In this document: one piece after another, positions 19,972-39,620 of the stretch | Layout: the number at the start of each line of letters is the position of its first letter | How positions within the stretch are numbered: the stretch's first letter is position 1 | Origin: a virus | Lineage: Duplodnaviria > Caudoviricetes | DNA: 64,000 nt | Direction: 5' to 3' (one strand) | Virus record (IMG/VR): IMGVR_UViG_3300028048_000040 | Location: 32,001 to 96,000 of that record | Made by a program: the position numbers and the translations under genes | Notes under the pieces: model-generated | Database searches by the model: none | Told to the model about the DNA's origin: nothing | The model's input: only the letters and a program-made list of their open reading frames with translations

Positions 19972-20115
19972 TACAGAGAGTAATAAAAGAATAACTTATA
20001 AACTTAGAATAGAATAGGCTAAATAAGCCTATTCTTTTCTTATTCTAGACAATAGTGTAACGGGATATTATAACCCCATTATACATTTACAATGCAATGT
20101 AAAGGAGGCCCTTTT

Positions 20116-20922
20116 ATGGCAACTACATTAAGTTACCTAGACACTAAAAATCATAGACTCTATGATAGAACTAAAGCTTCTATTACTCAAGGTTTAGTTA
20201 CTATCACTAATGAGTTTGGTAAATTTGATGGTTCTTGTATCGACTTTACTAATCCATCTCATACTGGTATTCTGTTTCCTAATGGAGTAAATTACTCTAA
20301 CGAAGCATTTACTATTTCTGCTTGGATTAGACTAACTGATACAATTGATAACTTTGTTTTCATTGGCAATGCTGATGATGTAACAGATATTGATGCTTGG
20401 GAGACTGGTAATGATACTGCATTATCTGCAGAGACTTTAGATCATACTACTCCTACCGAGTTTGTTGTTTCTACTGATGCCCAGCATCTAGTAAACGCTA
20501 GTATTATTGCCTTAGAAGATTATTCTTGGCATCATTTTGTATTAACTCGTATTAAAGGATCTCCAAATGATTCTCTGATTCAGTTTGTTGATGGTGTTAA
20601 GATTTCTGAAACTACTTTAGAGACAGCTAAGAATATTGACTTCTCTAAACTAGTAATTGGTTGTAGTGGTGGAGAAAATCCATTGATTGGTTATATGGAT
20701 GATTTCTGCTTAATTAAAGGAGCTAATCTTTGGACTGCAGCATTTACTCCTCCAGCAGTTCCTATTAGAGAAGCAACTGGACTGACTGCTCAGTCAGATA
20801 TTGCTTCTCAGACTGCTAGAACATGGAATGGTAGTACTGATATTATTGATTGCTCTACTAACCCAAATATTGCTACTTGGGAATTACTAGAACTGAATAA
20901 AAGTTTCGCTCTTAAGCTATAA
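20116..20922 (+). CDS. LamG-like domain protein
   Basis: FTISAW...WHHF...FVDG...GYMDDF...FTPP; ATG at 20116 after AAGGAGG; GACA-N6-TA at 20048-20059. Confidence 0.75.
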   Translation: MATTLSYLDTKNHRLYDRTKASITQGLVTITNEFGKFDGSCIDFTNPSHTGILFPNGVNYSNEAFTISAWIRLTDTIDNFVFIGNADDVTDIDAWETGNDTALSAETLDHTTPTEFVVSTDAQHLVNASIIALEDYSWHHFVLTRIKGSPNDSLIQFVDGVKISETTLETAKNIDFSKLVIGCSGGENPLIGYMDDFCLIKGANLWTAAFTPPAVPIREATGLTAQSDIASQTARTWNGSTDIIDCSTNPNIATWELLELNKSFALKL

Positions 20923-33359: not shown

Positions 33360-33434
33360 TGGCCCGCCTACCAAGAATCGAACTTGGATTAAAGGTTTAG
33401 AAGACCCTTGTACTATCCATTATACTATAGGCGG
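33360..33434 (-). tRNA. tRNA-Arg(UCU), 75 nt, CCA encoded
   Basis: Acceptor CCGCCTA/TAGGCGG, anticodon arm AGGGT-CT TCT AA-ACCTT, T arm CCAAG-TTCGATT-CTTGG, then G-CCA. Confidence 0.95.
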
Positions 33435-33478: not shown

Positions 33479-35080
33479 TTACTCAGTTATCTTAGAGTGA
33501 CACATGACAGCAAAGATGATAGTAAAAGTTCTAACCAATATATCTATTTCTGGCTCAAATCTTAAATGATAAGATTTCTGCTTAAATTCATATTGATGTT
33601 GAATTTGTTCTTTAATATCATCTAGTGCGAATAAACAATCTACGTTAAATTTATCTAATCCTAATGGTATCTTTGGATTATCATAACCCTCATTAGGATA
33701 GTAATATGGAATTTCACCTACCTCTGTTGGTCTGAATATTGATTCGGTTGCTAATTTAAGCATATCTTTTCTAGATATTCTCATACCAGCAGCACCTGGA
33801 TGCCCTTGACCTAATCCAAATGTTCCAAATACATTATTGATTCCCACATCCTTTATTAATTGATCTGATGTATAACCAGATACAGATAGTATAGCTGGTT
33901 TATTAGTATAACGTATAAGCAAAGTAATCTCATACTCATTATCAGTTTGGTAATGACTCTCTACAAATCTAGAACTATTACCAGTGCCATAGATAGCTCT
34001 AATATGTAATATCTTGCCATTCTCAAATTGAACAGAATACTTATATATATAATCAAACTTATACATCAGTTTCAGTTTCTTTTGGTTAAGATCCCATAGA
34101 ATCTTACCAGCTACTAGCATTCTAGTAATGTATTCAATTTGATATTCTTCCATAAAGGAATCTTTCCAGAATTTTGTAAATACATAGATAGTTTGATAGT
34201 CCCAGTAGAATTGATTCATATATACTGCATTTTGATATGTTTCTGGAAATCTTTCATCCATTTTCATATCATATACACTGACTAATGCTGCAATCTTATA
34301 TCCAGTAATATATTTAGTTTCCTTAACACGTTTTATATATGGATGTAACCATAGCAATGCTAATTGAGTGGCAGACATTCTGGTATCTAACACATAAGAG
34401 AAATCACTAGTAACAAAGTTGGTTTTCATTGACTTTATAAAGTCTCCAGATTCTAATTCATTTACAACTGGAATGGATCCAGCATGATGATCTATCCAAA
34501 CTACTTTGTTAAATGTACTTAACAACATAGTCATATATAGAATCTTTGGAGATAAATCAACTATGAATAGGACGAATTTCTTTTCTGGATTTCTAGCCTT
34601 TTCTACATTTACATCTAAGATTAGTTTATCAAGCACTTCATATTCATAATTGAATCTAGTGATCTTTACATTATCTCCATAGTGTAAAGAGTTGAATACT
34701 AAACTACCAGATGCATCTCCATCCATATCTGTATGGCATATCATATATACCATACACTCTTTAGCTCTTATAGCATTTATATCATTATCTAATAAGATGC
34801 CTTCTTTATTATAAGAATACTGAGCTATAAGATTAGAACTCTTTTTACTATCAAATATTCTTACAATATTAGAATTGGTAAGATTAGATTTTCTTCTGGA
34901 TACATAGGTTTCATCAAAGCCCATGTATCCAGAAAGTTTCTTAGGATACTTATCATTGTCTGAAATAACTAGATCATTTATAGAATTATAGAACAACTTA
35001 TTCTGCTCTTCAGATGAAAAGATAGCAAATCTTCCATCATCTAATTCAGACAATACTTGATCGACATCTATATCTATCAC
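33479..35080 (-). CDS. DHH/DHHA1-family phosphoesterase
   Basis: HTDMDG, IVDLS, WIDHH and GQGHPGAAG motifs. Confidence 0.85.
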   Translation of the reverse strand: MIDIDVDQVLSELDDGRFAIFSSEEQNKLFYNSINDLVISDNDKYPKKLSGYMGFDETYVSRRKSNLTNSNIVRIFDSKKSSNLIAQYSYNKEGILLDNDINAIRAKECMVYMICHTDMDGDASGSLVFNSLHYGDNVKITRFNYEYEVLDKLILDVNVEKARNPEKKFVLFIVDLSPKILYMTMLLSTFNKVVWIDHHAGSIPVVNELESGDFIKSMKTNFVTSDFSYVLDTRMSATQLALLWLHPYIKRVKETKYITGYKIAALVSVYDMKMDERFPETYQNAVYMNQFYWDYQTIYVFTKFWKDSFMEEYQIEYITRMLVAGKILWDLNQKKLKLMYKFDYIYKYSVQFENGKILHIRAIYGTGNSSRFVESHYQTDNEYEITLLIRYTNKPAILSVSGYTSDQLIKDVGINNVFGTFGLGQGHPGAAGMRISRKDMLKLATESIFRPTEVGEIPYYYPNEGYDNPKIPLGLDKFNVDCLFALDDIKEQIQHQYEFKQKSYHLRFEPEIDILVRTFTIIFAVMCHSKITE

Positions 35081-35501: not shown

Positions 35502-36305
35502 TTAGAATTCATATTGTGATATGTCTACACCTTTTAACAAGCTATATTTATCATCATTGACTTTTCTCATCAGCTCTATTTCTTTAGCAATATCTTGAGT
35601 AGTATATCTCAATAGTTTTCTATGAGCTGGATCTAATGTAGATATACCTAATTCTCTTGGATTTAATTCACCTAACCCTTTTGCTCGTTCCATATTCTTT
35701 GGTTCAGCATTTCTTAATTCATGGGTAAGCTCATACAATCCAAGTTTCTTACCATTTACAAGATATCTTTTTTCAGAAGCATCTATATATGGAATAAGAG
35801 AAGTTACATCATTCATGAATTGCTCTGTTAATACTACAGATTGAATACCAGATTCTCCATTATCTGCTAAACCATTCAAGATAGTAACACCTTTCTTTTG
35901 AGATACATTAAGATATGGATATTTCTTATTGAAGTTCTGTTTCATCTTACTGAAACTCAAACCTCTAGAAATCAATACATCTTCTAATAAAACTGGATTG
36001 ATTGCTTTATTGTAAGCTATATGCTCCATAAGCTTATCATAGTCTTTGAATCTATTAACAAATGCATTGAATTCAGAATTGGTAAACTGTTTCTTGGTTC
36101 TCATATGGCATAATTTATGATTCTTTAAGAAATCTTTTCTTACAAAATCTATTACAGCATCCATATCTATGAAATATCTCCAATTCTTTGTACCCATGTC
36201 TACATGATACAATGGAGATAATGCTGTATATACTCTTCCAGCTTCTATAAGAGGACGACAATACAGAAGTAGAAATTTTAATATGAGAACCCTAATATGC
36301 GCACC
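35502..36305 (-). CDS. gyrB: DNA gyrase/topoisomerase II subunit B, exon 2 (267 aa)
   Basis: GAHIRVLILKF...PLIEAGRVY...PLY...RAKGLGELNP...TLDP continues the TOPRIM motif broken at the end of exon 1. Confidence 0.9.
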   Translation of the reverse strand, partial: GAHIRVLILKFLLLYCRPLIEAGRVYTALSPLYHVDMGTKNWRYFIDMDAVIDFVRKDFLKNHKLCHMRTKKQFTNSEFNAFVNRFKDYDKLMEHIAYNKAINPVLLEDVLISRGLSFSKMKQNFNKKYPYLNVSQKKGVTILNGLADNGESGIQSVVLTEQFMNDVTSLIPYIDASEKRYLVNGKKLGLYELTHELRNAEPKNMERAKGLGELNPRELGISTLDPAHRKLLRYTTQDIAKEIELMRKVNDDKYSLLKGVDISQYEF

Positions 36306-36668
36306 CGGCGCGCATAACACCCGATCATATCTTCACCCGTAAATCTACAATCTCCTTTCCGTTATTAGATATAACTATAGGTGGGACGCACTTCGATTTA
36401 AAGGTTTCCCTACCTTTATAAAAAGGCTCTACTCCCATTTCAGGGATGATCTGTGAACTTTAAGATAGGCTATTTTATTCCTCTATCTTCTTAGCTGCTG
36501 ATTATCTATTGTTGAAGCTTTTAGCATTATTTTTTAGCATGAGCCATCCTATAACTTGTTTCTGCTTTCGCAACCATTTAGGTATATAGGCATTAAGACG
36601 TCCCAGCAGTTCACGTCCTGATACTCTTAGGAGTTACCCCCTAAGACGACAGTGCTGTATTTAGCATA
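36306..36668 (-). mobile_element. Group I intron (IA-like), 363 nt, no homing endonuclease ORF
   Basis: P AACTGCTGGGA, Q AATCAGCAGC, R GTTCACAGATCA, S AAGATATGATC; P1 with U-G at the 5' site, P10, P2 GNRA loop, P3, P7; terminal G; removal restores DGDFD-GAHI in frame. Confidence 0.93.
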
Positions 36669-38231
36669 ATCGAAATCACCATCAACGGTGATAATTACTT
36701 TATCAAATGGACACTTACTGATATCAAAGTTTTTACCATAACCTGATCCTAATATAGATAAGATGCCTTTTACTTCTTCATTAGCTAAGAATTTATCTCT
36801 AGATGTGCTAAATGCATTAGGCATTTTACCACGTATAGCATATATAGCTTGATATTTGCAATCTCTTGCAGTTTCACATGGAGAAGATGCTGAAAGACCT
36901 TCAACTATAAATAGCTCTAAGTGATCTTTATTCTCTGCCTTTACATATCCCTTTGGCAACTTAGTAAAGTCTCCATTATTATACTTCTTAGCAACATTTG
37001 CTCTTTCTTTATCAGCTCTGCTTCTAGCAAGTGCTACATCTTTTAAGAATGCACATACTTTCTGAAGGTCATCTGGATTTTGTTTAGACCATTGTTTCAA
37101 TGCTTCTACTACTACATCATGCATGAATGGTTCTAAATCTTCATTCTTACATACATTCTTTGCTTGACCATCAAACATTACTTCCATATGACAAGCAGAT
37201 ACTGCTGCTACTAAACCTGTGGTAACATCTCCATTTGTTGCTTCTAGTTTAGATCTAGTAGTTGCTAGATATATCTTGTTCATATAGTTCTTAAAGAAGT
37301 CTTGTACTCCTCTCATGAATCCTTTAGATGGAGTAGATTCTAATGTATTTACTGGAGTCATATTAGCAAAAGTAATTACATTAGCACTAGCATTAATATC
37401 TTGAGTGAATATCATTGCTATATCTGCTTTCATTACTCCAGTATCTTGGAATATCATAATAGGTTTGATCATTGGTTTCTTAGTCATTCTCATAAGATAT
37501 GTAAGAGTACCATCCACATTAGTAAGCTCTTTATGGATAACTAATTCTTTTCCATTTGGTTTAGGCTTATGACCAATGAAGTCTATCTTAGCACCTTGTT
37601 TGAGTAATGGTACCAAGTTCTCTAAGAACATCAATACATCTTCACATCTTATGGTAATATTACCCATAATAGAGAAGTCTGGAACAAATCTTACTATGGT
37701 TCCATGATCTTGAGATTTATTTGGTCTCTTCTCAGGACCTTTCTTATATTTAGAAAGAGGTTTACCTTCAGAGAATTCGATAACACCTGTAACAAATCCA
37801 TCTTTCTTATTATAGGTATGAGATTCTACTTCAAATACAGATGATACTGCATTAGTACATTTAGCACCAACACCATGAAGACCTGATGGATAGTTTCCTT
37901 TTTCTTTAGTATAGTTAGTAGATGTATGCTCTCTAGAGAATATTCTAACCAAATCATCTACAGGACACCCTCGACCATTATCTCTTACTATACATCCTCT
38001 AGTTCTTTCATCATATTCAACCCATACTTCTGTAGCAAATCCTCTTTGGATTTCATCAGTACCATTTTGAATTACTTCTCGTATACCATTCATCCATCCT
38101 TCATTTCCTATAGAGGATAGATACTCACCTGGATTCTGTCTAACCGAATCTACAAACAATTCAATTGTTTTGATTCCCTTAGTATAGGAATCCATGTTAT
38201 TTAGAAATTCCTTTGATATCTCCTTTTTCAA
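36669..38231 (-). CDS. gyrB: DNA gyrase/topoisomerase II subunit B, exon 1 (521 aa; spliced product 788 aa)
   Basis: EVIQNGTDE, DNGRG, GLHGVG (GHKL); FDGQAK, ELFIVEGLSA, IRGK, VIITVDGDFD; TTG start with AAGGAG. Confidence 0.92.
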
Positions 38232-38383: not shown

Positions 38384-39421
38384 TTAAGCTTTTGCAGGTT
38401 CCTGCAGATTCGGATTCTTCGGTGCTTCAGGCATCGGAGGAGTCTGAGTATTTGCTACAGAGGGACCAGGCATAGCTACATTCTGTACAGTCTGAGCCTG
38501 CTGAGGCTGCTGTACTACACTAGTGAAATCAGGCTGAACAGTCTGATTATTCTGTTCTACATAACCAATGGGATTAGTACCCATCTGAGCTACACCACCA
38601 AGACCATAGGTCTGACCAGCAGGAGCAGTATTAGCTACAGTCTGCTGATTGGGTTGAGGTACATACACACCATTCTGCTGTACAAACTGAGGCTGATTAA
38701 ACTGAGCCATAGCAGGAGCGGCAGGAGCATATACAGGCTGTTGGTTAGCTGCAAAATACGGATTTACACCACCAGTCTGAATACCATTGAACATATTGAA
38801 ATTACCACCCATGCCACCAAGCAGTGCACCAAGAGCACCAAAGGCATTGTCATTACCATACTGCTGATTCGGATTGAGCTGGTAATAATTGGAGGAATTC
38901 TCGAAATACTTCTTTGCAACCTTCCAGAGCTGAGGTACTTTACCAATAAGACCAGCAATGATATAGATCTCTTTGAGAGCCAGAGGCACATTGCCATAAT
39001 AAGTCTTGATGGACTGGAAGAGATCGAGGAAGTCTCCACAAATGCGTTCTACTTCTTCATCAGTCGTGTTAAGATCAAGCAGATTCCACTCTGCACCACA
39101 AATGTTGCACTTTACACGACCACTACCATCTTTTGTTTCTTCAATGGAATAATGACCTTGGGTATCTTTATGAGTGCAGATAGAACGAAGATATTCTTCG
39201 CGAGTTAACCGACCCTGGAAACCTACAGGCTGTTTCTGAAGTTCTGCAATCTGTTCTGCAGACAAGAACTGAACATTCTGAGATTCAGGAGTTACTACTT
39301 GTGCAGGTTGTACAACAGGATTCATCATGGGATTATAAATGGGATTATAACCACCCATAACTTGTGCCTGCTGAGCCTGCTGAACTACCGGGTTTTGAGC
39401 GACATTGTTGTTGTAAAACAT
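38384..39421 (-). CDS. Zn-finger-like protein (CTH...CxxC) flanked by Q/N/P/G/Y-rich low-complexity regions
   Basis: ATG at 39421 after GGAGG; early motif at 39496-39503; distinct, higher-GC codon usage. Confidence 0.8.
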   Translation of the reverse strand: MFYNNNVAQNPVVQQAQQAQVMGGYNPIYNPMMNPVVQPAQVVTPESQNVQFLSAEQIAELQKQPVGFQGRLTREEYLRSICTHKDTQGHYSIEETKDGSGRVKCNICGAEWNLLDLNTTDEEVERICGDFLDLFQSIKTYYGNVPLALKEIYIIAGLIGKVPQLWKVAKKYFENSSNYYQLNPNQQYGNDNAFGALGALLGGMGGNFNMFNGIQTGGVNPYFAANQQPVYAPAAPAMAQFNQPQFVQQNGVYVPQPNQQTVANTAPAGQTYGLGGVAQMGTNPIGYVEQNNQTVQPDFTSVVQQPQQAQTVQNVAMPGPSVANTQTPPMPEAPKNPNLQEPAKA

Positions 39422-39620
39422 AAAAAATACCTCCATATGATAATTGATTATTAATCTGGGTATTCGCTTACGCGAATATCCAGATCTTCACTATAATAGT
39501 ATATAACTGAAATTTCGAACCCTCTGCAAAATATGGATATTTTGTAGAGCTTCCTTTGGGTTCGAAATTCCAGTGACCTAAGTAGGTTACACCTTAGTCT
39601 AACCTGTTGTAAATTATAAT

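Follow-up and report, generated by a model that had tools for sequence, protein, structure and literature searches.

The window analysed here is a stretch of 64,000 nt from IMG/VR virus record IMGVR_UViG_3300028048_000040, a record of 342,328 bp that is rated complete and represents an uncultured phage (342 kb). Positions refer to the window unless another contig is named. Two ORFs on the minus strand were found to encode the parts of a GyrB-like protein. The first was called with 534 codons (38231..36627, minus strand) and encodes a GHKL ATPase, a GyrB transducer and the beginning of Toprim; ...ITVDGDFD is then followed by 13 codons of unrelated sequence, corresponding to read-through into the intron, and a stop. 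The second was called at 36320..35502 and is GyrB-like only from GAHIRVLILKF at 36305. The evidence supports division of the locus into two exons and an ORF-less group I intron of IA type, which follows the third Asp of the DxDxD motif of the phage GyrB-like gene:

36669..38231, minus strand: exon 1 of a GyrB-like topoisomerase II subunit, 521 codons, with ATPase, transducer and Toprim start, ending ...VDGDFD
36306..36668, minus strand: ORF-less group I intron, IA type, 363 nt, assigned from Rfam alignment, absence in the sister contig L003 and covariation in same-site relatives
35502..36305, minus strand: exon 2, 267 codons and a stop, starting GAHIRVLILKF..., with the remaining Toprim and the GyrB C-terminal domain

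Exon 1 was defined by its ORF, by Pfam matches to DNA_gyraseB, HATPase_c and Toprim and by codon-for-codon alignment with L003:4001-5563, and exon 2 by a Pfam match to DNA_gyraseB_C and alignment with L003:5564-6367. The 3' end of exon 1 reads ...GTT GAT GGT GAT TTC GAT, its final base being U36669, and exon 2 opens with the codons GGT GCG CAT ATT AGG from 36305. Removal of 36668..36306 (363 nt) joins the two in frame as VDGDFD-GAHIR and yields 2367 nt, or 788 codons, with a single terminal stop. The predicted spliced junction is GATTTCGAT-GGTGCGCAT. The insertion point is flanked by the third Asp and the Gly of the DxDxDG motif of Toprim. This stretch aligns with the DADVDG acidic cluster of Toprim in solved GyrB chains. 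The Toprim acidic cluster binds the catalytic metal in type IIA topoisomerases.

The host gene encodes a GyrB/ParE-type B subunit, with a GHKL ATPase, a transducer, the Toprim E...DxDxD residues and a C-terminal tail, and its product matched PDB chains of both GyrB and ParE at E 1e-58. A megablast search of the gyrB gene against deposited phages returned no match and the closest deposited phage protein was ~30% identical; the phage is distant from all deposited ones. A GyrA-like partner gene was observed in the same genome, ~155 kb from gyrB (G000:C1:223325-224659), and is intact and uninterrupted with an open frame of 815 aa.

The elements of a group I ribozyme were located within the insert as follows:

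36647..36672, minus strand: P1, exon CGAU (36672-36669) paired with intron guide GUCG (36650-36647), U-G at the 5' splice site
36651..36655, minus strand: P10 guide GCACU, contiguous with the P1 guide, pairing with the exon 2 start GGUGC (36305-36301)
36625..36646, minus strand: P2 hairpin, 9 bp, UCUUAGGGG-GUAA-CUCCUAAGA, GUAA loop
36613..36618, minus strand: P3 5' strand GGACGU, pairing with 36389-36384
36495..36609, minus strand: P4 and P5 region, P4 CUGCUG (36609-36604) with CAGCAG (36500-36495), enclosing P5 and its extension
36458..36494, minus strand: P6 hairpin AAGAUAG/CUAUCUU, from folding
36447..36451, minus strand: P7 5' strand GAUCA, preceded by J6/7 UUCACA
36390..36446, minus strand: P7.1 (UCCC-UGAAAU-GGGA) and P7.2 hairpins between P7 and P3', the signature of subgroup IA
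36384..36389, minus strand: P3 3' strand GCGUCC, located in the sequence and supported by covariation
36334..36383, minus strand: P8 stem-loop, from segment fold and Rfam alignment, inner part poorly defined
36323..36333, minus strand: J8/7 AAGAUA and P7 3' strand UGAUC, from Rfam alignment and P7 pairing
36306..36322, minus strand: short P9 (4-5 bp) and terminal G36306 at the 3' splice site, from sequence and fold

The core helices P3, P4, P6, P7 and P8 are all present in canonical order with the P3/P7 pseudoknot. The loop of P1 holds an inner UGCU/AGCA stem. P5 carries an extension of ~100 nt with a GCGAAAGC hairpin and, as a conserved A-rich element, AUGCUAAAAAAUAAUGCUAA, and P7.1 is followed by one or two hairpins and then by UCGAAGU-P3'. 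The support for P6 and P8 comes from folding only, and inner P8, P7.2 and the P5 extension were modelled from single-sequence folds. The whole intron stretch had a free-energy z-score of -2.8. No ORF of at least 40 aa lies wholly inside the 363-nt insert. P7.1 and P7.2, located between P7 and P3', place it in subgroup IA. More than half of viral group I introns are of the IA2 type (PMC11835236).

A search with group I covariance models, which had been proposed as a check, aligned Rfam RF00028 over all model positions 1-253 with a score of 28.9 bits (E 2.7e-5, 801 nt searched). The score is below the 50-bit gathering cut-off, which is an operational threshold and not a structural feature. At gathering threshold, Rfam reported tRNA only over the window and no group I match. 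The original prediction had described this insert, from the sequence alone, as an ORF-less group IA intron with the in-frame join VDGDFD|GAHIR, exon 1 ending in U, the intron ending in G, extra helices between P7 and P3' and a minimal P9. The join proved exact, the terminal bases are as described, the additional hairpins were found and the absence of an internal ORF, P7.1/P7.2 and the full-length RF00028 alignment bear out the class.

The junction is matched in a sister phage contig of 332 kb, L003, where an unbroken ORF of 788 codons (L003:4001-6367, 2367 nt) corresponds to exon 1 plus exon 2 of the window at 89.3% DNA identity and 94.6% protein identity. It reads DGDSD-GAHIR across the predicted junction with nothing in between. 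At the level of sequence, this allele is independent proof of the predicted junction. A scan of IMG/VR for DGDxD-GAHIR returned the sister contig only, and a degenerate pattern for a spliced or intron-less DGDFD-GAHI gave 0 matches in JGI metagenome contigs. No near-identical full-length protein to exon 2 is on record. As the best full-length match is only 63% identical, neither a spliced cDNA nor a window-like allele lacking the intron has been recorded.

Exon 1, used as a protein query, retrieved a clade of uncultured phage GyrB genes with 49-93% identity. Among the 68 nearest protein clusters, formed at 90% identity, 36 stop within a few codons after DxDxD while 32 are intact and continue G-x-H-I. 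Such truncation was seen in 0/47 of the more distant protein matches. Judged from these sequences, about half of the large uncultured phages of this clade carry a member of the intron family at this one site. Fifteen same-site alleles were collected, comprising the window, six fetched contigs and eight contigs from a pattern scan of JGI metagenomes for the P5 extension of the family; all 8 matches of that scan fall in the same gene. Scans of IMG/VR for the 5' part of the window intron and for the family P5 extension gave 0 matches each. The insert position is identical in all 15 alleles (GAU, an intron ending in G, then GG), and exon 1 ends in U and the intron in G in every one of them. Same-site introns without an ORF are 301-364 nt long. 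The L026-type allele shares the 5' end of the intron, its contig breaking off after 27 nt of intron sequence.

Covariation was evaluated on a plain MAFFT alignment of 7 alleles, using the helices as originally named. Standard pairs filled 92.4% of cells, as opposed to 32-46% when the partners were slid by 1-3 columns, and compensatory changes on both sides were observed at 19 of 32 pairs; none of 500 column shuffles reached the observed values. P1, P2, P3, P5 and P7 were supported by covariation, and P4 pairs but is nearly invariant. Compensatory changes were found at 8 of the 9 pairs of P2 and at all 4 pairs of P5, the sequence of which differs in all seven alleles. P3 occurs as seven different sequences, five of which pair at all six positions and two with a single mismatch. 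P7 reads GAUCA/UGAUC in 3 alleles and GACUA/UAGUC in 4 and is always matched. P7.1 also covaries, as UCCC/GGGA, UCCU/AGGA and UCUC/GAGA, with UCGC/GCGA in Seoulvirus. In P1 the U-G, A-U and G-C pairs do not vary among the 7 alleles; the fourth covaries, with CGAU/GUCG replaced by GGAU/GUCC in L031 and L035. The P10 guides track the second codon of exon 2, with 8 bp in L025 (UGUAAACU/GGUUUACA) and 6 bp in L035 (AAGACU/GGUCUU). Thus the predicted P1, P10, P2, P3 and P7 pairings are all in the sequence; P1, P2, P3 and P7 covary and the P10 guide follows exon 2.

The splicing steps proposed for the locus follow the known group I mechanism. The internal guide GCACU-GUCG would pair with the last four bases of exon 1 (P1) and with the first five bases of exon 2 (P10). 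Free guanosine bound in P7 would attack after U36669 at a site chosen by P1, and the freed 3'-OH of exon 1 would attack after the terminal G36306 while P10 holds exon 2. Ligation would give an mRNA encoding one 788-aa protein that reads ...VDGDFDGAHIR.... What the sequences show is the structure, the covariation and a junction that is exact and in frame; catalysis and splicing in vivo are what we infer. We consider it very probable that the insert is a functional ORF-less IA group I intron in the pre-mRNA of a phage GyrB-like gene and represents a stage of a homing cycle.

The original prediction also held that splicing is obligatory for topoisomerase activity, an inference that needs softening. 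Exon 2 has no ATG and no Shine-Dalgarno sequence, its sole upstream in-frame start being GTG 36320, which lies inside P9 and 5 codons upstream, and the same-site relatives share no conserved exon 2 start; separate translation of exon 2 is therefore unlikely. Against strict obligation, the large topoisomerase subunit of T4 is split within Toprim and works as two polypeptides (bioRxiv 10.1101/2022.08.31.505936). By analogy the halves of the window gene could be translated separately and assemble like T4 gp39 and gp60, the 363 nt being a spacer, and gene callers do report two separate genes on related contigs. Besides the lack of a credible start, however, this spacer holds a complete, covariation-supported group I core and a single metal-binding motif is broken between two of its residues, which makes a split gene without splicing extremely improbable.

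A decayed ribozyme was also considered, in which case gyrB would be a pseudogene and the phage would use the gyrase of its host. The low Rfam score, the lack of an endonuclease in the intron and the fact that splicing is a prediction from sequence would all agree with such decay. Every core helix is nevertheless intact in the window copy, as are the U-G at the 5' site and the terminal G, both exons are open and retain the stated protein identity to the intron-less sister, and the intact GyrA-like partner is kept at genome positions 223325-224659. Furthermore, the low score is a trait of the family with its long P5 extension rather than a sign of decay, since the relatives score as poorly (L027 scored 32.3 bits, E 1.7e-6), and points to an ill-fitting model. 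An RF00028 search by E-value of six related loci together (52 kb) missed the introns, which its filters removed and which scored only when short stretches were searched. We regard a dead intron as very improbable.

The functional-intron reading bears on annotation. The gyrB gene is whole, yet gene callers report it as two genes on each related contig, and as the default Rfam threshold misses the whole intron family, these phages will have their topoisomerase genes filed as fragments. An RF00028 search of the 342-kb genome returned this locus only, although Rfam is weak on this intron type and others are possible. A second intron candidate at 326360-327449, picked by a loose core-motif regex, was not supported by Rfam.

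The window intron encodes no homing endonuclease, and neither an HNH, HNH_3 or GIY-YIG gene nor a relative of the L035 nuclease was found in the 342-kb phage genome. This fits the earlier suggestion that the intron is either stranded or mobilised in trans. Having no nuclease of its own, it would spread only via ordinary recombination or by means of a nuclease from a co-infecting relative. Neighbouring ORFs were considered as free-standing endonucleases and rejected: a 533-aa ORF encodes a DHH phosphoesterase, and a 112-aa ORF belongs to no family and is also found beside the intron-less L003 allele.

A comparison with gyrB of related phages had been recommended in search of intron-less or endonuclease-bearing alleles, and both kinds were found, in L003 and, with an HNH_3 gene, in L035. 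The L035 allele is 1103 nt long and carries an ORF of 244 aa in the P6 loop, the product of which matches HNH_3 in Pfam (E 6e-8), I-HmuI in the PDB (1U3E, E 4.5e-7) and HNH in PHROG (E 5e-25). The endonuclease gene lies at L035:1121-1855 (minus strand) on a JGI metagenome contig and its 3' end overlaps the 3' strand of P6. L031 has the same ribozyme as L035 without the ORF. Three sister phages with ~90% identical exons differ at the site: L003 is empty, the window has the present intron and L025 an intron that is only 64% identical to it, at exon protein identities of 87-90% over the stretches compared between window and L025. Presence/absence polymorphism at one site among close relatives is clear. 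The clade offers a natural series of empty site, ORF-less intron, different ORF-less intron and HNH-bearing intron, which would allow tests of the homing cycle and of whether ORF-less introns may be protective.

Across the alleles, intron similarity did not track exon similarity (Spearman 0.06); intron identities near 0.6 lie not far from what global alignment gives as noise, so that the incongruence rests mainly on a few pairs. In all three sister pairs the lowest exon identity was observed within 45 nt of the site, at 0.62-0.73 as compared to roughly 0.8-0.98 in most other 45-nt windows, while other such windows in the 3' third of the gene also fall to 0.64-0.69. Between the window and L003, 30 differences were counted in the 90 nt around the site against 10.7% gene-wide (binomial 7.5e-9, for a window chosen post hoc), and 14 of the 21 codons changed around the site are synonymous. 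This trough of divergence fits co-conversion but may also be due to mosaic recombination. The pattern is the one expected if introns were repeatedly gained, replaced and lost with co-conversion, but it falls short of proof, as the 3' third of the gene is mosaic elsewhere too. Most likely, the window intron represents the endonuclease-less stage of a homing cycle.

Persistence of the intron may alternatively be owed to immunity, the ORF-less copy being kept because it breaks the HNH nuclease site of co-infecting relatives and not as a neutral relic. An HNH-bearing intron does occupy the same site in L035, the sister alleles diverge most at the site and do so largely synonymously, the 50-nt insert of T4 in the same motif blocks MobA nicking (bioRxiv 10.1101/2022.08.31.505936) and jumbo phages have been described to compete by means of an intron nuclease (PMC11620839). 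The HNH cut site and phage co-infection are assumptions here, however, and a neutral homing cycle of gain, decay and loss gives the same pattern equally; we therefore hold retention through immunity to be rather unlikely. The further claim that the intron is a maintained shield, which renders an essential topoisomerase gene uncuttable by an I-HmuI-like nuclease of related rumen/gut jumbo phages, is more doubtful still. If it were true, the intron polymorphism and the synonymous scrambling of its flanks would record an ongoing phage-versus-phage contest.

The window intron, read as an endonuclease-less stage of homing, has several counterparts among known systems. The original prediction had placed familiar phage introns mostly in td, nrd, DNA/RNA polymerase, terminase and lysin genes, but gyrB is a known home as well: for Staphylococcus jumbo phages, the genes listed as disrupted by introns include DNA gyrase B, and two introns are noted in gyrase A of AR9 (Korn et al.). 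The gyrB CDS of MarsHill is deposited in GenBank as a join. Like the window, MarsHill has a group I-type intron in the GyrB gene of a jumbo phage, in the same DxDxDG motif, with a P1 of CGAU/GUCG and without an ORF. The MarsHill intron is however ~150 nt long and lies two codons upstream (DAD|DDG as opposed to DGDFD|G), and the two GyrB proteins are 26% identical. The window intron differs in its 363 nt, its large P5 extension and its P7.1/P7.2. Introns in gyrB are thus not new in kind and the present one is a familiar sort of selfish element. Our literature search found no paper describing a group I intron in gyrB of this phage clade. Large phages of the gut that carry numerous group I introns are also on record (PMC12880540).

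Among deposited phages, the closest sequence relative is an intron in the RNA polymerase beta gene of Seoulvirus (SPN3US-like, e.g. MN445185). Over 124 nt of the P3-P6 part, with the P5 extension included, identity is 71-74%; the two introns also have J8/7 in common and share a P7.1 hairpin that shows compensatory changes. The Seoulvirus intron differs in host gene, insertion site and phage group, being from an enterobacterial phage group, and scores 69.4 bits, which is above the cut-off, compared to 28.9 bits for the window. In Seoulvirus phages the gap between the CDSs annotated as 'RNA polymerase beta subunit 1' and 'subunit 2' corresponds to this group I intron (L004:2935-3256, MN445185.1 ~20090-20411). 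The first of these CDSs, as annotated, runs into the intron, and several records have no feature there.

T4 td and other IA2 phage introns, namely those in T4 nrdB and nrdD and in the SPO1 DNA polymerase gene with I-HmuI, share the IA architecture with P7.1/P7.2. They resemble the window intron in this architecture and in lying at a catalytic motif of a DNA-metabolism gene, a likeness that for td is established background. They differ in that the window copy has no ORF and that the ORF of L035 sits in P6. The HNH gene of the L035 allele resembles I-HmuI of SPO1 (PDB 1U3E).

The gene 60/mobA cassette of T4 is likewise a selfish insertion in the same motif, gp60 reading ...MTDADHDG before a 50-nt gap that lies one codon downstream of the window site. 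The T4 insert is part of an HNH (MobA) cassette, whose insertions invariably fall in Toprim, and interrupts the target of the linked nuclease (bioRxiv 10.1101/2022.08.31.505936). Unlike in the window, T4 uses ribosome hopping and a split protein instead of RNA splicing. Selfish insertions in the same few Toprim codons are of three independent kinds: the T4 bypass cassette, the mini-introns of Staphylococcus jumbo phages and the window intron.

Further IA-type introns were picked in 15 other IMG/VR viral contigs (L005, L009, L017 and 12 more) by a core motif of P4', J6/7-P7 and P7.1 that the window intron has as well. Many of these contigs have intron ORFs upstream, and L013 has three introns within 2 kb.

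In the neighbourhood of gyrB, the gene directly upstream (window 38384-39436, minus strand) encodes a protein of 350 aa that is Q/N/P-rich, has a CxxC-containing middle part and matches no family in Pfam or PHROG; in every related contig this position is taken by an ORF of about the same size. Two genes downstream lies the 533-aa DHH phosphoesterase-like gene (PHROG 4771, window 33479-35080, minus strand), which is syntenic in the relatives. A tRNA-Arg gene (anticodon TCT, window 33360-33434, minus strand) is located just downstream of it, and tRNAs were observed at the matching place in L025 and L027.
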